NCBI GenBank assembly: GCA_049515895.1
Contig: JBEKTQ010000023.1
Span: 14,224 to 78,223, forward strand
Source: Candidatus Bathyarchaeia archaeon
GTDB taxonomy: Archaea; Thermoproteota; Bathyarchaeia; Bathyarchaeales; Bathycorpusculaceae
Direction of reading: 5' to 3'
Length of the DNA: 64,000 nucleotides
Shown: piece by piece, positions 1 to 58,606 of the stretch
Numbering within the stretch: the first letter of the stretch is position 1
Layout of the letters: the number at the start of each line of letters is the position of its first letter
Translations under genes and position numbers: made by a program
The notes under the pieces: generated by a model
What the model saw: the letters and a program-made list of their open reading frames with translations, nothing else
Told to the model about the DNA's origin: nothing
The model's database searches: none

Positions 1-189
1 TGTAGCGTTATCTTGAGTAATCCCGCGAATTATTAATTGTCCAGTTTGCTTTTTTTGCAATTTTGTTTTGCTCATCCTTATCACTTTCAAGACTGATGCT
101 CGACTTATTCTTTTGTACTTATACCCACTTTAGTTTAAAAAATAGCACTTATATGCACCGCAAAAAATTAGAACGCTCAAAAGGCTGTT

Positions 190-343
190 CAATGTGCATT
201 GCGGGGGCAAAGGCCTGTCGCGAAACGGGCGCCATAGGATAAGCCAACCCCAAGATTATTTATTGCATTTTATATGTTCTGGTGATAAGATAAATCATAA
301 AGACCTTCTTCCCTCTATGAGGTAAATTTTTGGAAGCCCTTGG
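190..343. repeat. ~150-bp palindromic intergenic element, copy 1
   Basis: CAATGTGCATTG, then AAGGCCTGTC..CCATAG, AT-rich core with TGTTCTGGTGATAAG, then CTCTATGAGG..TGGAAGCCCTT; aligns by eye with copies at 2567, 3350, 4012. Confidence 0.85.
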
Positions 344-350
344 TAGCGGT

Positions 351-650
351 TTAGCGCATGCGAATGCTCTTAAAGGCGTGTTTGTGGGATTTGAGTACTA
401 CGGAGATTATGGTGCTTTGGACGCCTTTGATTTTCATGATTTTCTTATGCAAGACGTTGCGGAACTCTTCTATGCTCGAAGCCGAAACTATGGAAACAAT
501 GTCAAATTCGCCTTTAACGTCATAAATCTCTTCGATATTTTCAACCTTTTCGAGGGCATCTATGACTTGCGCTTTCTGAGGCGGATCAACAAAAATGTTA
601 ACTGAGGCCTCAAACCGACCTTGAATATTACTGGACTCCATATTGGTCAT
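351..650 (-). CDS. Lrp/AsnC ligand-binding (RAM) domain protein
   Basis: IEEIYDVKGEFDIV...IMKIKGVQST pattern; no HTH. Confidence 0.8.
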   Translation of the reverse strand: MTNMESSNIQGRFEASVNIFVDPPQKAQVIDALEKVENIEEIYDVKGEFDIVSIVSASSIEEFRNVLHKKIMKIKGVQSTIISVVLKSHKHAFKSIRMR

Positions 651-816
651 TAAAAACAGTTAAGCGGGTCAGGCAGCTTTTAGGCATTTTTGAGAACTGA
701 GGCGGGCTATTTTGCAAAGCGGAGCGGGCTAAAAGGCTTATCAATCGATAGCAAGAATTATAAAATTCCAGAAGCATCGATGTCGGTTCTTCCAAGTCTT
801 TGAGGGCTTTGGATTA

Positions 817-1098
817 ATGTCAAAAGTTAAGGGATTGAACGTAAGCTCTGCATTTTTGACACGTGTCATAGGAATTGACAAATTAGTAAAGTGTATTTCG
901 CAACAACACTTATTTCCAGTTTGGCTGCACTCACCAATTGGATGTGCCATGCCTAAGAGAATTAGAGCAGTTACATTCGTCATGTTACCTTTTGCCGTTT
1001 TCGCATGGGTGATTGGATGGACCATGTGTTTAGCAGGCGAAAAAAAGGTAACCCGGCAAAACAAAAAATCCCTCACAGTACATATTGTTCAAAATTGA
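817..1098 (+). CDS. small hypothetical membrane protein (true start possibly at MPKRIR)
   Basis: Single hydrophobic segment FVMLPFAVFAWVIGWTM followed by a basic tail. Confidence 0.35.
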   Translation: MSKVKGLNVSSAFLTRVIGIDKLVKCISQQHLFPVWLHSPIGCAMPKRIRAVTFVMLPFAVFAWVIGWTMCLAGEKKVTRQNKKSLTVHIVQN

Positions 1099-1298
1099 AG
1101 TTGTACCACGCGCTGTGCAGGTTTAAAGCTGACAGTTTAGCTGAAGGCTTGAATAGTCTCTTCGCCCGCGCTCAAAATCAAAACTTCAGTTATGGCGCTT
1201 TCCCTCCATAGAATTGGGCTTTCAGACAAAACTAGTCTTACGTTAATTCATAAACTCTTTATATTACTACTAATTCTAATTTTGGTTAGCTGTTCGCT

Positions 1299-1604
1299 AT
1301 GAATCGATCTAAGCTTGAGCGATACACTATTAGACGATCTAAGCTAGAAATGTACCTTGACCTTCTCAAAGTTTTAGCTCAGCGCGATCCGCTGAAGCTC
1401 ACCCATATTATGCATATGACTAACCTTAATTGCAGCGTGTCGAAAAAGTACCTTGACTTCTTGACTCTGCAGGGGCTGGTTGAAGAGAAGATCATTGGAA
1501 GAGAAAGAATAGTCTATGCGATCACCCAGCGTGGCGTGACAGTGCTTAAGCAGCTCAGAGAACTCAAAGAAGTGCTCCCCATCGTTGAAGAAACAGAAAA
1601 CTGA
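1299..1604 (+). CDS. winged helix-turn-helix transcriptional regulator (archaeal RRSKLE-type)
   Basis: RRSKLEMYLDLL...KLTHIM..NLN....KKYLDFL...GLV...YAITQRG. Confidence 0.85.
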   Translation: MNRSKLERYTIRRSKLEMYLDLLKVLAQRDPLKLTHIMHMTNLNCSVSKKYLDFLTLQGLVEEKIIGRERIVYAITQRGVTVLKQLRELKEVLPIVEETEN

Positions 1605-1728
1605 GCAGCGCACGCGCTCCTCTTTTTGATAAATATGAATTTCAAATTCATAAATACTATAAGTAGCCTCGATAAATATTTGTCATAAACACGTTTCTAC
1701 ACAACTAACTTGGAGGTGGGAACGAAGA

Positions 1729-2256
1729 ATGAGCGAAGTTATTCTGGAAAAGTCAAACAATGCAAAAAGGAAAACCTGTTTAATTGGACACCCAGACACT
1801 ACTCGAACACATACTCATTGGCCCGTGGCTTTTTCTTATCCAGAGGATTTAACAAATGCCTACCTGTTGGAAAACAAAAAGTCCGCGGTTTTGAAGAGAC
1901 TTGAGCATGCTCATGAAAAGCTGAAGGACGCTCGCGAAGAGATTAATGAGGCTGTTTTGGCGGCACTAGAAATGAAGGAAGCTCGCGACGATATCGCGGA
2001 CCAGATGACAGCCGCAATAGTGGCGCGAGGCGCTATCAGAAATGCCGAGATTACACTGAGTCAAGCTCAAACAAAGATAGAACACCTCAATTTTGAGCAC
2101 AGAAACGTGGACTCTAAACAAGCAAAGGAGGAAAAAATGGAATTACCGAAAAAAAACTTGAGCATTACTGCGGATTTTGTTATCGTGAAGGGTGTGTCTC
2201 TTGAAGAGAGACGTATAGAAGCGGAAAAACCGTTATACCTAGCAAGATATGAATAA
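1729..2256 (+). CDS. hypothetical coiled-coil protein
   Basis: 175-aa ORF, GGAGGTG RBS upstream, heptad-rich middle region. Confidence 0.6.
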   Translation: MSEVILEKSNNAKRKTCLIGHPDTTRTHTHWPVAFSYPEDLTNAYLLENKKSAVLKRLEHAHEKLKDAREEINEAVLAALEMKEARDDIADQMTAAIVARGAIRNAEITLSQAQTKIEHLNFEHRNVDSKQAKEEKMELPKKNLSITADFVIVKGVSLEERRIEAEKPLYLARYE

Positions 2257-2566
2257 TCAGGTAACACGAGCAGGTCTATGCGTAACACCCTAATTTTCAC
2301 TACAGATGCCACGCATTTGTTTTCTTCGCGGTATTTTCCCTCTTTTTTTATCAGCGCGCGGTTCCTCAGCCTAAATCCAGGAGATGCGTTAGAGGGGCGA
2401 ATGGAAACAGCCGGAAACGAGCGCGTAGCCACAGTCAGAAAGGTCTGAAAGTTCCAAAAACCGCCCGAAAATCCGCAAGGGCAGAAATGTTGTCCCAAAC
2501 CAAGGCTAGGCCAGTACGCTTGGCGCCCCGAAAAATTGCCGGAAAAAAAATCGGGCAAAATCGATA

Positions 2567-2716
2567 CAATGTACATTGCGAGCAAAGGTCCTCCGAAAAC
2601 TGGTGGGTATAGAGTGGGTAAGTTTGAATTTATTTATTTGATTTTTAATGTTCTGATGATTAGATAATTTGTGGAAGGCCTTTTCCTCTATGGGCTCCAG
2701 ACTTTGAAAGGCCTTA
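2567..2716. repeat. ~150-bp palindromic intergenic element, copy 2
   Basis: CAATGTACATTG, AAGGTCCTCCGAAAACTGG ... TGTTCTGATGA ... CTCTATGGG..CCAGACTTTGAAAGGCCTT. Confidence 0.8.
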
Positions 2717-2860
2717 CGAACGAGTTACAGGGGCAAAGTTCCAATCCTTATTTGATAATACTGTTAATTCTGTTTAACTTAAAAAGAAAAACCCCTATAT
2801 CATAAATAAGCAGATGAGCTAAGTGCATGAAGCGGAAAGACTTCAAAGCTCAACCAAAGA

Positions 2861-3136
2861 ATGCAAGAGGCATTGGAGAGAAAGCAATTGGCATCATTAA
2901 AATGGACAACCGTTGACCCAGATGGAAGCCTCTTTTCAAGGGGAAAACACGATTACTATGCAATTCTCGTCCGAGGAATCCCCGAAGAACATCCTAAAGA
3001 CTGTATTGTAGAACTCTACGTGACGGATAAAGAAATGACAATTTTTGAGATTAAGGTCAGCGCAGTTAATGAAAAAATTGAGCTATTATCTATACCTTAC
3101 GATAAAGCAAGGGGACACCTATTATTGCCTTTGTGA
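2861..3136 (+). CDS. hypothetical protein
   Basis: 91-aa ORF with globular composition, between repeat copies 2 and 3. Confidence 0.55.
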   Translation: MQEALERKQLASLKWTTVDPDGSLFSRGKHDYYAILVRGIPEEHPKDCIVELYVTDKEMTIFEIKVSAVNEKIELLSIPYDKARGHLLLPL

Positions 3137-3349
3137 CAGTTGAAATCTATTTCACAAACGCCGTACTCTGATTGCGGCAAAGACCTTGAAGAATTCAAGC
3201 GGGGAGGTTAGAGTTTGCGGAACTGCGTGAAGACGGCGAACCATCCAACAGTTCCCTCTGAACCTGCCCAATCAAGCAAACGATTTACTTTTTTTAAACC
3301 TTATGCATTCAAGATACATAAAAATCGCCGAAGCGCAAACTTGCCCGGT

Positions 3350-3503
3350 CATTGTACATTGTTTGGGGCCAAAGGCCTGTCTCCGATTGAAGCCTTTAGG
3401 ATAAGTCAAATCAAAATTTATTTTATTCATTTTTAATGTTCTGATGGCAAGGTAAATTCAGGCAGGCCCCATTCTATGGGGGTAAATTTTTGGCAGACCT
3501 TGG
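3350..3503. repeat. ~150-bp palindromic intergenic element, copy 3
   Basis: CATTGTACATTG, AAGGCCTGTC ... TGTTCTGATGG ... CTATGGGGGTAAATTTTTGGCAGACCTTGG. Confidence 0.85.
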
Positions 3504-3546
3504 TACGGTCGTATGCCTCTTTCACTGCAATATTCCCATGCATATT

Positions 3547-3578
3547 ACGCACTTAAACGCATACACTTATAAGTGCGT
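3547..3578. promoter_or_regulatory. inverted-repeat operator overlapping a TATA-like box upstream of the RHH gene
   Basis: ACGCACTTA...TAAGTGCGT inverted repeat, overlapping perfect palindrome CACTTATAAGTG. Confidence 0.5.
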
Positions 3579-3711
3579 ATGTACATGTATGCTAATGTGA
3601 ATAAGTGAAATCGAAGGGACAAAAGATGAAACAAATAAGAACCGAATACAAAAGTTGGCTACTCACTTATTTCAAAAACATGTAACCAGCAAAAAAAACA
3701 GGTGACTAAAA

Positions 3712-3854
3712 TTGGACCGCATCAACGTTGACATTTCAGACGAAATAGACAAACAGCTCAGACTAAAAACCGTAGAAAGATTCGGAGGCAAAAAGGCGAC
3801 TTATCCAAAGCTGTCCAAGAAGCGGTAAAAACATGGATCGACAAAAAACAATGA
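3712..3854 (+). pseudogene. ribbon-helix-helix (CopG-like) protein, frameshifted
   Basis: AGGTGA RBS, TTG start. MDRINVDISDEIDKQLRLKTVERFGGKK continues as GDLSKAVQEAVKTWIDKKQ* if one A is added to the A5 run at 3790-3794. Absent from the ORF track. Confidence 0.75.
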
Positions 3855-4011
3855 AGCCGTCCCTCTTCAAATCCCAATAACTATCTTATAAGAAGCCTAT
3901 GCAAAAGGCCAGGGAAGCCAGTTAGCCTGGAACTCCTCGCATGAGGATTATGGGCAATCTAACTGCAAAACCCCTTTATAGAAAAGTTTCAATCTGCTGC
4001 GTTATCCTATG

Positions 4012-4166
4012 CAATGTACATTGTGTTGGGCAAAGGTCTTCCACGAATTGGCAGCCATAGTATAAGTCAACCTACGTTTTGTTTATTGTATTTTATATGT
4101 TCTGATGATAAGGTAAAACCTGAAAAGCCTTTTCCTCTATGGGGGTAAAATTTTGGAAGACCTTGG
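4012..4166. repeat. ~150-bp palindromic intergenic element, copy 4
   Basis: CAATGTACATTG; perfect 11-bp inverted pair AAGGTCTTCCA / TGGAAGACCTT; inner CCATAG / CTATGG. Confidence 0.9.
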
Positions 4167-4249
4167 CTGGCCTTCCAGATGCTAGAAAATTTGGGCAGCC
4201 AAAACCATTTTAACCATCTTATCTTTGATATTAATCAGAGGTTGTCAAC

Positions 4250-4588
4250 TTGGCTAGCTGCAATGCAGAAACTGCGCAGAAAATCCTCAGCACAGTTCCG
4301 TACGCCCAGGGTTTCCACTTCTTCATGCCGGACGGCCATTATACAGGCGAAACAGCAATGTCTCTCTGCTCTTTCCTAAGAGACCTGGGAAGGTTAGACG
4401 GGCAATCAATCAAGTTCCATTTCGAGCGCACCGACTTTCAAAAGTGGATAAGAACCACAATCGGGGATGAGGAACTTGCCCGTAGAATCGACAAATTGGG
4501 TAAAAAATTGCCAGAAGAAAGTTTGCCGCAACAGTTAACTGACATAGTGCAGAAACGAATTTCTGAACTGCAGTTGACAGATACTTGA
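4250..4588 (+). CDS. DUF5752-like protein
   Basis: ILSTVP..QGFHF....G.YTGETA.SL..F...L....SI.FH..R.DFQKWIR..IGD.ELA. Confidence 0.75.
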   Translation: MASCNAETAQKILSTVPYAQGFHFFMPDGHYTGETAMSLCSFLRDLGRLDGQSIKFHFERTDFQKWIRTTIGDEELARRIDKLGKKLPEESLPQQLTDIVQKRISELQLTDT

Positions 4589-4788
4589 GAACAAAAAGCC
4601 TGTGCCTATTTTGGAGGGGTTAAACAAAACATGCCAACCTGAGGATTCAGCTTTTCGAACAAACTCCGAGGTTCAAGAATAATCTGTTGACAGATGCAGG
4701 GTTTGCTGAGGCTCTGGAATATTTTTCCTTAGGAGAAAAGAACAAAATGCAAATGTCCTACACGAAAAAGGAATAGACGTGGAGAGTT

Positions 4789-5463
4789 CTAACTGCTCCC
4801 GCTACATTGAATACCGTCTAGAGTGCTAGTGTTTAGATTACCAGAAGAATTAGAGTAACCGTTTTGAAGGCCTGCTAGGTCCAAATTTGCGGGGTTCTGT
4901 TGGTTTTCCACATTAAGGTAAACTGAGTTCCACCAAACGCTATGTCCTCCAGCAGTGTAAACAGTTACCTTATACGCCCCGTTTCCTGGTATAGGCAACG
5001 CAAGAGTACCAGTCACGGGATTCTGGCTAGTCCCAGGCCATGGAGGCACCGCATAATTTGCCTCATAACTTTGTCCAGTATCTGACCTAACAGCGACGTA
5101 TCTTACAATCTGGTCCTTGTACCAATTGTTAACTTTAAGCCAGCTTGGATAAACCGTTCCTTGAGTGGCAGCTGCGGTTGGTGTAGGTGTTCCTGATGAG
5201 GGTGTGGTTGACAGCAGATTACCCAGAGATCCGGTAGCCACCAATATAACAACAATAAATCCGAGGACAAAAACGATTGCCAGTACAGGGCCCAACTTTT
5301 GCGGTTTGCCGGCCGTTCTTTTCATTCTGTTATTTATTTGATGAGAAGGAACACTGGGACTTACAGCGACTCGTTCGCCATTTCTAATAATTCTCGCGCC
5401 ACAATCGGAGCAGAACTTTACATCTACGCTAATTTCAGCACCACATTCTGGGCAAAACGGCAA
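4789..5463 (-). CDS. zinc-ribbon membrane protein
   Basis: N-terminal CPECG...FCSDCG, one TM helix, Thr/Pro linker, extracellular domain. Confidence 0.85.
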   Translation of the reverse strand: MPFCPECGAEISVDVKFCSDCGARIIRNGERVAVSPSVPSHQINNRMKRTAGKPQKLGPVLAIVFVLGFIVVILVATGSLGNLLSTTPSSGTPTPTAAATQGTVYPSWLKVNNWYKDQIVRYVAVRSDTGQSYEANYAVPPWPGTSQNPVTGTLALPIPGNGAYKVTVYTAGGHSVWWNSVYLNVENQQNPANLDLAGLQNGYSNSSGNLNTSTLDGIQCSGSS

Positions 5464-5570
5464 TTTGACATCCTCTTTTTATGATTTATGAGAACTAAGT
5501 GTAGAGAGAGTAACTTAAATCTTACTAATTAATATACAATATTTTCTATCTAGTATTCTAAAAATACCAA

Positions 5571-5634
5571 AGAAAAAAGGGGATTTGCGGGTGACATCTC
5601 CACTCAGAGCAGGGTTCAAATCCCCCCGATCCAC
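5571..5634 (+). repeat. tRNA 3'-end-like fragment (att-like scar)
   Basis: GGGTTCAAATCCCCCCGATCCAC T-arm and acceptor-like tail with no 5' half; homologous to 8831-8892. Confidence 0.6.
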
Positions 5635-5858: not shown

Positions 5859-8609
5859 TTACGGTCGTTTTCTCAGCGTTATCATTGCCAGTGCTGCGAT
5901 TCCCACGATTATGACAATTATGATTGCAATTCCAATGTACATGACGGTGGTTTGCGTGGCTAAACCGGTAAGCGGCGTGCTTGTGGGTGCTGGTGTTGCT
6001 GCTGCATTGCTGGCGTAGAAATATGTTTCAGCGGTCGATGGATAGTATGATTGTGTGCCTGCAAAACTGGCGAAGACGGTATACTGACCTGCTATGTCAG
6101 GTTTCCATGTGAAGCCGAACGAGCCGCTGGCATCGCTTGTAGTTGTGCCGATCTGTCTGTAGTTGTTGTTGGAATCGAGGACGAACAGGTCAACTTTGAC
6201 GCCTGTGACATTGGAGGGCATAGGCTGCTGCATGTAAACATACTCCATCCACGGAGTCATACTTGCATCAGAAACGCAAGGAACTCCGTGCGGAAAGTTC
6301 GCTGCTTGTTCTAGTTGGTGTGTGCCCGCAGAGGTGTCGATGACTGCCCCCGTTATCGTCACGGGTGTTGCGGTCGTTATGCCAACGCCAGTTACTTCAA
6401 CGGTTGTAGCGCTAGGTCCTTTGCTGTAGGCGTATACCTGGTTGTCGTATGCATTTTCCGCTGTCATGATGCCGTCGACAATGGGGGCAGGACCCGTAAC
6501 GTAAAAGCCCATTATACTCCATATCAGCTTTCCAGTAGTAGTGTTTATTGCCAGTTCCGATGCTCCGCGGAATAGGGGCGGAGAATACTCATGACCCTCA
6601 TTGAGGAACCACACTCCATCAGCAACAGAACCTCCGCTAAAAACCCATAGTGGCCATACGCCGTAAGGAGTATCTGAGCCAGCGTTACCAGATGCTGTAT
6701 TTGTATTCGTATACCATAAGACAGTTCCTGTCAGTATGTTAATAGCCCACATGTCTCCTCCGAAACCCATCAAGTAAAGCGTGCCATTGTCGCCGAGTAC
6801 GGATTGGTAGCCGCCAATTGCACTGTATGGATTAGGGACTGGGATTCCGCCGTTTGTACCTGTGAGTTGAAGTGGGCCCCATAGTTGCGCGCCTGTTTTC
6901 ATGCTGTAGCCATATAATGTGCCGAACCCGTTGTTTTCTTCAACAAGGACTCCCCATCCGCCTACTCTGGTATCTACTCGAGTGTAGGGTGATAGCGTTC
7001 TATTGGTTACCCATAGCTGTGCGCCGTTTGTTGAGCTGTAGCCTGCTTCAACTTCCCACCCAACATTAAAGCTTAAAGCTGTTGTAGGTCGGTCAGTCAT
7101 AAGTACCTCGCCGCTGTCGACAGTAGTGATCGAGAGGCTTCCAGTTATTGGTGCGGTATTAATGGCAGTAGCTACAGGTGTGCGCCACATTATTCCGTTA
7201 GCGAAGTCGTAGAGCCGATATAGTGTAGGTCTCCAAGACCAAGAATTTGCAGTAGTGCCTGGTATATAGCCGCTTGGGTACAGAATACACTGCGTCGAGT
7301 TCCAGAGGTTAAGTGAAGGTCCAGTGTTAGTGACCTGTGTTCCTATGATTGTTTGTGTACCAGCGGTCGAGTTAATATAGTAGCCTATCAAGTCTCCGCC
7401 TTGACTTTCCGTAAGCGTCATTCCAGTGCCGTTGATGATGCTGCAGACATATTGCCCAGTCATGGCATCAATCATGTCATAAGTGGTGCTTCCTGGGGCA
7501 AGATGGAACCCAGCAACGTTGGATGCGACAGATTGACCGGTAATGAAAGCGGGAGTTCCTGTGAACCATAGGTATGCGATAGATCCAAACTGGTTGGGGG
7601 ACACGTAATCGAGTATTTGACCGCATCTTAGACTCAGAATTCCGCCGGTGGCTGTTAGCAGGGTAGCGTTTGCAGTTGAATATCCCGTTGATGGTTGGAC
7701 AGTTGAATAAGTATCCTCCCATATTTTGCTTCCCGTGCGTAAGTCAATGGCAATCGTGCCTGCTGGAGTACCTATAGAAGTTGGGAATTCCTCGTAGTAC
7801 ATTATGCCGTTCATGATTACTGTTGCCCACTTTGGCTCGTATTGCGAAGATGAATAGTAGTTGCTTGTTTCAGATCCGCCGAATTCTCCTCCGACTAAGC
7901 CTCCGAACGCAACGGGCCTTGTCCAGATGATGTGAGCGGTCTTTGGCGCTATAGTGTATGGATTATAGTTTCCAGTAATATTGTACACTCCGGTGGTGGC
8001 GAAAGCATATGCGCTTAGCCCAAGCCAGTTCCCTGTAATGGTAGACCATAAGCCGTTCACGGATTGTACTGGGCGTGTCCAGTAATTTGTTGGAAGTGGA
8101 GTTTGCGGTAAAGATGGTACTGGCTCCTGCTGCACTGTAAGCGTTGCTGGACTGCTTGTGGAAGGGGCAAATGTATCATTGATATAGTCGTTAGGTGCCG
8201 AGTGATTTGCACCTGCTAATATATCGCCTTGGAAGTTGAGTACAAAAGTGTAGTTGCCAAGGGTAGTGGGCGTATACAGAGTATAGGTTCCTCCAGTATC
8301 GTCGGTTGTAAAAGGTCCCAGTGTTTGGGTAGTTCCATCAGGCTTGGTGACTGTCACTTTAAGATTGTGCCATCTATCTCCAAATGCTCCAGCAGCTGTG
8401 GGTGGCGGTATTTGGAGCCAGAAGCCGACGGTAACAGTTTGGCCTATACCACAAGGGTTAGGCGAGACATTAATGTAAGCATACGTTGGAATTGTCCATG
8501 GCGGTGAATGCGCATTTGCGTTTGGTATTAATGTCATTGAAGCTGTCATTGAAAGTATAAAGAATAAACAAATTGTTATAGCTGCAATTTTATTTTTTAG
8601 CATTTTCAT
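5859..8609 (-). CDS. secreted PQQ-like beta-propeller surface protein with C-terminal membrane anchor
   Basis: Signal peptide from MKMLKNK (start 8609 rather than 8771), repeated TG..lW motifs, Ig-like ends, C-terminal TM plus RKRP. Confidence 0.9.
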   Translation of the reverse strand: MKMLKNKIAAITICLFFILSMTASMTLIPNANAHSPPWTIPTYAYINVSPNPCGIGQTVTVGFWLQIPPPTAAGAFGDRWHNLKVTVTKPDGTTQTLGPFTTDDTGGTYTLYTPTTLGNYTFVLNFQGDILAGANHSAPNDYINDTFAPSTSSPATLTVQQEPVPSLPQTPLPTNYWTRPVQSVNGLWSTITGNWLGLSAYAFATTGVYNITGNYNPYTIAPKTAHIIWTRPVAFGGLVGGEFGGSETSNYYSSSQYEPKWATVIMNGIMYYEEFPTSIGTPAGTIAIDLRTGSKIWEDTYSTVQPSTGYSTANATLLTATGGILSLRCGQILDYVSPNQFGSIAYLWFTGTPAFITGQSVASNVAGFHLAPGSTTYDMIDAMTGQYVCSIINGTGMTLTESQGGDLIGYYINSTAGTQTIIGTQVTNTGPSLNLWNSTQCILYPSGYIPGTTANSWSWRPTLYRLYDFANGIMWRTPVATAINTAPITGSLSITTVDSGEVLMTDRPTTALSFNVGWEVEAGYSSTNGAQLWVTNRTLSPYTRVDTRVGGWGVLVEENNGFGTLYGYSMKTGAQLWGPLQLTGTNGGIPVPNPYSAIGGYQSVLGDNGTLYLMGFGGDMWAINILTGTVLWYTNTNTASGNAGSDTPYGVWPLWVFSGGSVADGVWFLNEGHEYSPPLFRGASELAINTTTGKLIWSIMGFYVTGPAPIVDGIMTAENAYDNQVYAYSKGPSATTVEVTGVGITTATPVTITGAVIDTSAGTHQLEQAANFPHGVPCVSDASMTPWMEYVYMQQPMPSNVTGVKVDLFVLDSNNNYRQIGTTTSDASGSFGFTWKPDIAGQYTVFASFAGTQSYYPSTAETYFYASNAAATPAPTSTPLTGLATQTTVMYIGIAIIIVIIVGIAALAMITLRKRP

Positions 8610-8631
8610 TTTTCTCCTAATCTTGTTTTGC

Positions 8632-8667
8632 GCTGGGAAGAGGCATGAAGCTGCCTCTTCTCTCAGC
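8632..8667 (-). promoter_or_regulatory. 5'-UTR hairpin of the beta-propeller gene
   Basis: GCTGGGAAGAGGCA-TGAAGC-TGCCTCTTCTCTCAGC inverted repeat between a TATA-like region and the start codon. Confidence 0.45.
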
Positions 8668-8830
8668 AGAACTCCCTTTACCCTTTTTAGTATAAGTAAT
8701 TTACCTAATTTTCTACGAGCGAATCTTAGCGAATAAGCGCCTTTTTCCATTAATAAAGAACACAAAATCAATCTAAACTTCGGTATTAATTCAAAAAAAT
8801 AACACTTGACAGACTAACTCTTAAAAATAA

Positions 8831-10783: not shown

Positions 10784-10843
10784 CTGAGGATAAGTAAAAC
10801 CGGAAAGCCTTTCCCTCTATATCCCCAAATTTTCTGAAGACCA
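10784..10843. repeat. right-half copy of the ~150-bp element
   Basis: CTGAGGATAAGTAAAACCGGAAAGCCTTTCCCTCTAT...AAATTTTCTGAAGACC matches the right arm of copy 4. Confidence 0.7.
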
Positions 10844-58231: not shown

Positions 58232-58606
58232 TTATTTAGCCTAAGTCAAAGATGCCAGCCCAGACTAATATATCTTACTACTTAATACAAAATTGAAGAC
58301 TTTAGCTGCGAAGAAGAACAAGGTCTTCGGCGCTTTATCTTATCGTCAGAACATATGAAACAAATAGACAAAATATCAATCGACTTATTTTATGCTTGGA
58401 AACCTTTGGAAAGCCTTTCCACCCGAACTATACGGGAAAAAAGGGAGCGCGAAAACAAACTTCCTTTGAAATATCCCATGTGCGGAGGACCTGCTCAGGA
58501 GAACCGATTGTTTGGAGGCGATATCTCGTTAAGCATTACCCGGGTAAGACAAGCCTTTGGAAGTGTTGTGTTCGGGACAGAAGAGACCTGGGAAAAAACT
58601 TTACTG

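Follow-up and report, generated by a model that had tools for sequence, protein, structure and literature searches.

In a 64,000-nucleotide stretch of contig JBEKTQ010000023.1 (the window), from the genome assembly GCA_049515895.1 of a Candidatus Bathyarchaeia archaeon, small genes are separated by co-oriented copies of a repeated element of about 137 bp. In the reading that we favor, and to which we give about an even chance, these elements are module-junction sites, and the gene cassettes between them are exchanged by recombination inside the repeat, at points that are probably guided by homology rather than set by one fixed cut. Repeat-bounded cassette shuffling as such is known; what would be new here is its occurrence in archaeal islands that are integrated at tRNA genes and have a self-splitting integrase.

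An original prediction, made from the letters of the window, had described four co-oriented repeats of near-constant length, and all four were found in their places on the + strand (Table 1), with a family core of 137 nt. An nhmmer profile built from these copies was run on the whole 3.18-Mb assembly (G000, in which the window lies on contig C23). The window copies matched with E values of 5.6e-39 to 5.4e-46, and nine further copies brought the genome total to 13. One of them, at C23:13821-13956 just upstream of the window, is the fifth copy of the window's island and makes five in a row; elsewhere in G000, four co-oriented copies lie on contig C2 and one each on C10, C24 and C40, and the ninth is the degenerate copy at window positions 58284-58420. 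Scanning other Bathyarchaeia with a model built from the copies, as had been proposed, revealed a large family. In an even draw of 80 other genomes of the genus (G-numbers below), a sequence-only covariance model gave matches at an E value of ≤1e-6 in 39, with at most 19 matches per genome. In a first draw, the covariance model had picked up the family in 11 of 24 congeners; among 16 genomes from other families of the order, only one had a match, a single weak one. The set of elements grew from 98 at first to 186 dereplicated full elements, whose median length of 137 nt (standard deviation, 3.4) bears out the near-constant size.

Read on the + strand, the element starts with a left arm, AAGGYCTTYC...GAAWT...(variable G+C-rich part)...ATAG, which is followed by a centre of 24% G+C versus 46 to 51% in the arms, in line with the AT-rich core that had been noted. 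After the centre come the best-conserved block of the element, TTTTATAT-GTTCTGATGAT-AAGGTAA, which is nearly invariant, an internal box (AAGSCCTT + YCC-CTCTAT), a second variable G+C-rich part and the right arm AWTTTTGGAAGRCCTT. The box AAGGCCTT, which is its own reverse complement (GGAAGGCCTTCC when complete), ends both arms, and a third box of this type inside the right half makes three palindromic boxes per element, spaced about 31 and 93 bp apart as read from the consensus. In the outer inverted repeats, the 10 outer positions pair in 87% of cells, and the centre is better conserved than the ends. A + strand run of at least five T is present in 87 of the 186 elements, GTTCTGATGAT adjoins a TATA-like run, and a weak 11-6-11 dyad, TTTTATATGTT-CTGATG-ATAAGGTAAAA, could be read by eye in the centre. 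Because the TTTTATAT-GTTCTGATGAT block is near-invariant and the boxes are three and palindromic, we argue that a protein, either a regulator or a recombinase, may read the element.

The window copies follow this plan with some variation. Copy 4 has a perfect 11-bp outer inverted repeat (4033-4043 and 4154-4164), copy 2 its own CTGG/CCAG pair, and the motif GTTCTGATGAT is conserved, all as predicted. Other features claimed for all copies are less uniform: the palindrome is exact in copies 2 and 4 and altered in copies 1 (CAATGTGCATTG) and 3 (CATTGTACATTG), copy 1 has TGTTCTGGTGA, and copies 2 and 3 have lost the CCATAG of the left arm. The palindrome, CAATGTACATTG, is accessory and lies outside the family core: of 98 elements, 12 have it on the upstream side, before the left arm, and 9 on the downstream side, after the right arm. 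This 12-bp sequence, counted with up to 2 mismatches, stands 15 to 20 nt from the left arm in the first case and about 10 nt from the right arm in the second; it moves together with cassettes (an example outside the window is at C23:13968-13979) and may serve a small regulator as its operator.

The two halves of an element have separate histories. When the 186 elements were scored pairwise together with their 120-nt flanks, the left half was seen to follow the upstream flank and the right half the downstream flank. Against a background of 12,705 pairs sharing neither flank (left-part identity of 0.582, right-part identity of 0.652), the 133 pairs sharing only the upstream flank had values of 0.704 and 0.673, the 258 sharing only the downstream flank had values of 0.573 and 0.718, and the 5 sharing both had values of 0.836 and 0.818. 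These 5 are the only ones among the 396 flank-sharing pairs with both flanks in common, and the excess identity falls off toward the centre from either side. The 98-element set agrees.

Single cases point the same way. Within relative G016, a segment of about 935 bp is 100% identical between two contigs, C5 and C4 (L057 9185-10193 and L061 7714-8721, where L-numbers denote fetched loci or contigs bearing family matches). The identity starts inside the element, at model position ~97 and at the internal box, and the left arms and AT-rich parts differ. In relative G002, a lone cassette with a DUF5752 gene has half elements on its two sides, one a right half (model 67-135) and the other a left half (model 2-85), and the core is present in each. 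Contigs from four DNA runs of peat metagenomes join parts of different window elements, and in one of them the sequence upstream of copy 3 is joined to copy 4 via a different left arm, as if the ribbon-helix-helix (RHH) cassette between them were absent. We take these joints only as a weak hint of exchange, because such short contigs may stem from a different locus or organism. As for the makeup of the duplicated G016 segment, it holds two genes (a 133-amino-acid [aa] open reading frame [ORF] and an HTH_45 gene), and its L061 copy ends beside a second AGACCTTCTT box, so that the segment there is bounded by a direct repeat of 10 bp.

The arrangement of the elements is strongly polar. Among neighbors less than 6 kb apart, 77 of 78 in genome loci and 73 of 73 in metagenome contigs have the same orientation, 150 against 1 in total. 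The sole inverted pair of the 151 (L107 8097-8612, in the tRNA-Thr island of G077) stands tail to tail, 250 bp apart, at the tRNA-Thr end. Gaps between elements are often 390 to 560 bp, space for one small gene, and up to 7 copies occur within ~5.3 kb. Eight fetched arrays start beside tRNA genes and run in the direction of the tRNA, with the first element 16 to 154 nt past the tRNA 3' end at the five arrays measured. The anchor is tRNA-Thr(ggt) in G000, G016, G077, G090 and G092 and tRNA-Cys in G002, G023 and G001.

The array on contig C2 of G000 lies between perfect 46-bp repeats of the 3' part of tRNA-Thr. The distal repeat falls inside a 315-codon ORF with an archaeal phage integrase domain (PF16795; E value of 1.3e-7, 32.1 bits for a cut-off of 27), and at the tRNA end a short ORF runs through the 46-bp repeat in the same frame as the integrase ORF (WSLRRDLDPRPLPYQ). 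Going by its sequence, the C2 island is a split, "suicidal" integrase arrangement of the SSV type, with both marks of that type: the PF16795 domain, and an attachment site inside the integrase ORF whose halves lie at the island ends. A tyrosine recombinase linked to copy clusters, which had been proposed as something to look for, was thus found at other loci and genomes. In a circular form of the island, the integrase gene would sit between the last and the first element, in the manner of a cassette. Integrases at least 64% identical to it are present in 12 genomes, all of which carry elements; in 8 of these the 3' end of the gene touches or runs into the right arm of an element, and so it does in all nine metagenome contigs with a match to int(C), the C-terminal part. 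The tRNA-Thr attachment sequence was seen at C2:174708-174739, 175855-175886 and 181437-181468; a third copy of it, 32 bp long, lies 1.1 kb beyond the island end and suggests a second, decayed tandem integration.

The same frame, from tRNA-Thr to an element with its integrase, is common to five species, with integrases 76 to 92% identical in four of them and 38 to 48% in G077. The five islands hold 2 to 7 elements (three in G077, one of them inverted). Their interior ORFs gave no cross-island match at an E value of 1e-5, and the only cross-island matches were pieces of integrase and the ORFs over the tRNA end. Conversely, three cassettes of the window (DUF5752, Lrp-domain and RHH) turn up again at other loci of G000 and in other genomes, with homology that starts or stops inside elements. 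Both observations support exchange of cassettes at the repeat, for which a test in close relatives had been proposed.

The window's island has no integrase, and the only repeat that bounds it is one of 65 bp, 88% identical. Its two copies (C23:13604-13668 and the distal copy of Table 1) enclose all five elements, and metagenome contigs diverge at the distal one (loose ends at L103 8796-8827). These repeats, and a related one at C2:186755-186805 in G000, have the T-arm-like GGTTCAAATCC and an acceptor-like end. ARAGORN and Rfam did not identify them as tRNA, and they may be copies of an attachment site or the 3' portion of an unusual tRNA. The island lies downstream of tRNA-Ala and of a partial copy of that tRNA. 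In this neighborhood (C23:11311-12192), the 3' two-thirds of tRNA-Ala(tgc) are repeated in part ~0.8 kb farther on (89% over 75 nt), with a PIN-like ORF of 141 aa in the interval, and metagenome contigs diverge at the tRNA end; the duplication looks like a small integrated remnant adjoining the element island.

In the mechanism that would account for these patterns, Bathyarchaeia of peat and wetland would harbor mobile islands that integrate beside tRNA genes and use the elements, as double-stranded DNA of ~137 bp, for module junctions. Modules of 1 to 4 genes in either orientation, lying between co-oriented elements, would be swapped via recombination within the elements; each module would keep the half elements that adjoin it, the upstream module the left half and the downstream module the right half. 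A circle released by recombination of two direct elements could re-enter any other element (Campbell-type integration), and strictly co-oriented arrays would therefore arise automatically. The agent would be host recombination or the homology-dependent activity known for an SSV-type integrase; the available text of a review reports that the integrase of pTN3 recombines identical segments as short as 104 bp (PMC8371274). Guidance by homology rather than one defined cut is suggested because the exchange points spread over the element. The circular intermediates, the enzyme and the binding of a protein to the boxes are steps that we infer.

Several observations weigh against exchange of cassettes at the elements. 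Break points scatter (model ~97, 100-114, 124-127 and 36-62, and just outside the element), no defined crossover speaks for a dedicated enzyme, and the pattern of exchange could come partly from ordinary divergence with occasional recombination; the element pairs are non-independent samples, and all genomes are metagenome assemblies. No match to the C2-type integrase at an E value of ≤1e-10 was found in 16 of the 39 element-bearing genomes. Searches with PF00589 and PF16795 found no tyrosine recombinase on the whole contig of the window, in agreement with the earlier statement that the window has no recombinase. Circular cassettes, excision junctions and empty sites were all absent from what was seen, and none of the 73 metagenome loci included a circular contig. 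In the empty-site search, relatives keep only the right flank of the lone cassette of G002, from the core-like CTGTGATAAAG, with the left flank not comparably adjacent, and the solitary element on C10 of G000 had no syntenic counterpart. Finally, recombination by itself does not account for the strong conservation of GTTCTGATGAT beside a TATA-like run, which hints at a regulatory or protein-binding role. As to a fixed crossover, it was considered and set aside, the X-drop limits of identity being broad.

The main rival, which is compatible with cassette exchange, takes up this hint: the element would be a composite terminator, promoter and operator module reused between transcription units, and the shuffling a by-product of many similar copies. 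Its T-rich centre of 24% G+C with frequent T runs, the order of TTTTATAT and then an almost invariant 11-mer in its best-conserved part, and three palindromic AAGGCCTT boxes, spaced about 31 and 93 bp apart, for a dimeric regulator would all fit such a module, as would the tight fit of gene ends to both arms, with stops 8 to 35 nt from the right arm or within the left arm. Scattered break points also fit homologous exchange, and the PeSL elements of T4-type phages offer a precedent in the text available to us (PMC2839356, PMC4122927). Nevertheless, the flanking genes lie in both orientations (about 13 sense and 9 antisense in a manual count of single-gene cassettes), and therefore one polar promoter cannot serve them; the sense genes appear to have a TATA-like box of their own ~25 nt before the start (by eye, at ~4226-4235), and a co-orientation of 150:1 is not predicted by regulation alone. 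We consider this account unlikely on the whole.

The likeness to PeSL extends to the cassettes. As far as the accessible parts of two reports describe them, PeSL are short conserved promoter-terminator motifs that flank small, mostly unknown genes in hyperplastic regions, and their recombination leads to insertions, deletions and replacements and can release mini-circles (PMC2839356, PMC4122927). Like PeSL, the elements described here are co-oriented, flank variable ORFs, mark the boundaries of indels and replacements between relatives and show shuffled cassettes with scattered break points. Unlike PeSL, they belong to an archaeal host, are twice as long, have three AAGGCCTT boxes with no evidence of a stem-loop terminator and lie in tRNA-integrated islands with a split integrase; their apparent resemblance to promoters and terminators consists of the TATA-like and T runs.

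The integron is the other obvious model, and the original prediction had proposed an integron-like cassette array at sites unrelated to attC. Co-orientation, recurring cassettes, breaks inside the repeats and a linked recombinase all agree with such an array, whereas the break points are not fixed as they would be at a precise capture site. Integron attC sites end in the core sites RYYYAAC and GTTRRRY; these motifs occur in 1 and 3 of the 186 elements, respectively, and both together in none, so the lack of relation to attC stands. As in integrons, co-oriented sites separate compact, promiscuous cassettes beside a tyrosine recombinase, and the cargo turns over between relatives. An attC site also folds by pairing of its own two arms, with a conserved structure and a free sequence. 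The differences are that arm pairing is not specific to the element, that the place of an IntI with attI at the head of the array is taken by an SSV-type integrase (PF16795) with a tRNA gene as its target and a gene that it splits itself, that cassette genes lie in both orientations, and that each half-site travels with a different cassette.

A strict form of this model, in which a dedicated recombinase (the SSV-type integrase of the island or an enzyme acting in trans) would insert and excise circular cassettes site-specifically, with its cut at one defined position in the element, strikes us as decidedly unlikely. The co-orientation, the compact cassettes (many of 390 to 560 bp between elements), the cassette-like place of the integrase gene in the circular form, the core-bearing half elements around the lone cassette of G002 and the weak central dyad are all in keeping with it, and two recent events end at the internal AAGNCCTT box (model ~97 and ~102-111). 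Against these stand break points that do not fall at one position and the many element-bearing genomes without the integrase; besides, no attI-like special site, hybrid circle or secondary-site consensus was seen, and the genome has no lone copy of the core at ≤5/28 mismatches. An archaeal analogue of the integron, unrelated to attC, in which circular cassettes would be captured and released at a 137-bp site of three boxes and a conserved core by a recombinase (the self-splitting SSV-type integrase or one of the host), is a tentative proposal that we would put forward with low confidence.

Two further readings from the original prediction fared worse. Non-autonomous transposons with terminal inverted repeats (a family of miniature inverted-repeat transposable elements) inserted in intergenic DNA would explain ~137-bp units with outer inverted repeats of 10 to 11 bp, an AT-rich interior and many dispersed copies, some of them solitary. 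Such a transposon would be expected to move as one unit, independently of its flanks, and to leave target-site duplications. Target-site duplications of 5, 6 and 8 nt were found at 1, 0 and 0 of the 186 elements, not above shuffles, and left and right halves are inherited with different flanks; for these two reasons the transposon reading is disfavored, and we hold it to be very unlikely. The 150:1 co-orientation and a centre more conserved than the ends also speak against it, and no parent transposase was seen beside the elements, since the two DDE transposases there are separate insertions (their ends were not compared with the arms). Replication-origin or iteron-like sites, with inverted initiator-binding sites around an unwinding element, would match inverted arms around a centre of 24% G+C. 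Origins are expected to be few in each replicon and to have an initiator gene linked to them. This reading is highly improbable given up to 7 copies within ~5.3 kb, the mosaic halves and the 88 ORFs scanned beside arrays, among which Pfam named no Orc1/Cdc6, Rep, primase or helicase.

The arms could also pair, in a structured noncoding RNA or a folded single-strand site; they are inverted repeats, and an outer helix appears in the RNAalifold structure of the four window copies. We find this hardly credible. The partial co-variation of the arms that had been noted was not upheld. The covariation term is only -0.25 kcal/mol and structures are weak on both strands, and Rfam gives no match at its gathering score, nor at an E value of ≤0.1 over the island, other than tRNAs. 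For 48 complete elements, own arms pair with a mean of -10.1 versus -10.3 kcal/mol for foreign arms (permutation P of 0.68), and in 98 elements the one pair of the outer helix that often varies shows no coupling between its two positions (TG 29, CG 28, TA 13, CA 13). Pairing of the circle type, between the right arm of one element and the left arm of the next, was no better than background. The arms are a conserved inverted repeat and are not co-varying.

With respect to the integrated elements themselves, the islands resemble SSV, pTN3, pT26-2 and TKV in their PF16795 integrase, the attachment site within its gene, the tRNA target and int(N) and int(C) at the island ends. The review mentioned above, in the parts accessible to us, notes modular exchange among integrated archaeal elements, presents suicidal integration in its conclusions as a system of hyperthermophilic archaea and lists three suicidal integrases in its table of characterized enzymes, from Sulfolobales and Thermococcales (PMC8371274). 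The hosts here, unlike those of the SSV-type elements it covers, are mesophilic Bathyarchaeia of peat and wetland, and those same parts describe no repeated junction elements that punctuate cargo (PMC8371274).

In dif/pdif modules and Xer-exploiting elements, small gene modules are bounded by short sites for the host recombinase and accumulate, tandem and co-oriented, at one site; pdif sites are 28 bp long and usually alternate in orientation. Unlike these, the family described here has no dif-like lone chromosomal copy of its core in the genome at ≤5/28 mismatches.

Beyond the genus, a 23-nt exact core pattern was searched in 185,579 species genomes (one per species), IMG/VR and JGI metagenomes. 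It yielded 38 stretches in the species genomes, 0 matches in IMG/VR and 90 stretches in the JGI metagenomes. By title, 35 of the 38 belong to Bathyarchaeota or Bathyarchaeia, 1 to an "uncultured archaeon" and 2 to a bacterium-labelled metagenome-assembled genome. The latter two (L130 and L146) are on 2.4-kb and 5.0-kb contigs of one Candidatus Acidoferrum assembly, and they are probably mis-binned, since all other labelled matches are archaeal. The DNA runs that contain the window stretch are peat or wetland metagenomes, and no RNA run was listed for window positions 1-5500. The literature searched, mostly at the level of titles and abstracts, gave no description of such elements in Bathyarchaeia.

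Bathyarchaeia are abundant, uncultured archaea with little-known mobile DNA, and the family provides a searchable marker, either as the 137-nt model or as the 23-nt core pattern, for their variable islands. It also offers a testable mechanism for the swapping of cargo such as small regulators and DUF5752, SIR2-like, AIPR and histidine kinase genes. Exchange guided by homology, if true, would mean that the PeSL principle, described for T4-type phages, also operates in integrated elements of archaea and could help to explain how islands with broken integrases continue to diversify. If instead a dedicated enzyme were at work, it would amount to a second, independent invention of integron-like gene capture, archaeal and tied to self-splitting integrases, and an integron analogue would turn tRNA-linked islands into programmable cassette stores rich in regulators and defence-like genes.

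The genes between the copies are those that had been described (an AsnC/Lrp domain, a winged helix, here of the HTH_45 family, and an RHH protein), and Pfam also identified DUF5752. The gene at the start of the window, of 95 aa in full, lies between the C23:13821-13956 element and copy 1 and has a homologous 108-aa ORF in an array of G016. The stop of the Lrp-domain gene is 8 nt from the right arm of copy 1, and the same cassette also follows other elements on C40 and in G012, G016, G002 and G020, with homology beginning inside the element. For the frameshifted RHH gene, a relative has an intact 47-aa homologue (L111:2393-2536; RHH_6, E value of 2.7e-7), and the whole cassette recurs on contig C2 (77% over 761 nt) and in G020, G002, G012, G001 and G085; the paralogous cassette on C2 has no sense-strand ORF of at least 35 aa. 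The DUF5752 cassette of the window was also found, with elements on both sides, in G016, G002 (two loci) and G020. Besides these four families, the Pfam-named cargo in or beside arrays includes histidine kinases, TrmB, SIR2-like, AIPR, DUF1643, TPR and beta-propeller proteins, together with one integrase fragment and the two DDE transposases mentioned above. HTH_45 was considered as a partner protein by co-occurrence and rejected as non-discriminating, because it is found regardless of elements (multi-copy in 66 of 80 genomes).

Table 1. Elements, repeats and cassette genes in the window (positions of the 64,000-nucleotide stretch)
Feature	Position	Strand	Basis and remarks
5' part of 95-aa cassette gene (MSKTKLQKKQTG...)	1..90	-	no Pfam match
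Junction element copy 1	207..343	+	nhmmer and covariance model; accessory palindrome CAATGTGCATTG at 190-201
AsnC/Lrp ligand-binding domain-only cassette gene	351..650	-	PF01037, E 5e-15
Winged helix HTH_45 cassette gene	1299..1604	+	PF14947, E 8.2e-15
175-aa ORF	1729..2256	+	no significant Pfam family
Junction element copy 2	2582..2717	+	nhmmer and covariance model; palindrome CAATGTACATTG at 2567-2578
91-aa cassette ORF	2861..3136	+	no Pfam family
Junction element copy 3	3369..3503	+	nhmmer and covariance model; palindrome CATTGTACATTG at 3350-3361
RHH cassette gene, frameshifted	3712..3853	+	sequence reading; frameshift after GGCAAAAAGG
Junction element copy 4	4030..4166	+	nhmmer and covariance model; palindrome at 4012-4023
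DUF5752 cassette gene	4250..4588	+	PF19027
Distal copy of 65-bp direct repeat	5563..5626	+	88% identical to C23:13604-13668; T-arm-like GGTTCAAATCC
Partial element, right half only (model 73-133)	10784..10842	+	nhmmer E 9.7e-8; covariance model match
Degenerate solitary family member	58284..58420	-	nhmmer and covariance model matches

Degenerate half elements seen by eye at ~722-760 and ~4592-4635 found no support, the only weak match being at 789-818 (E value of 5.1). The right-half fragment of Table 1 lies outside the island, beyond a 970-aa surface-protein-like ORF (5859-8771, - strand).

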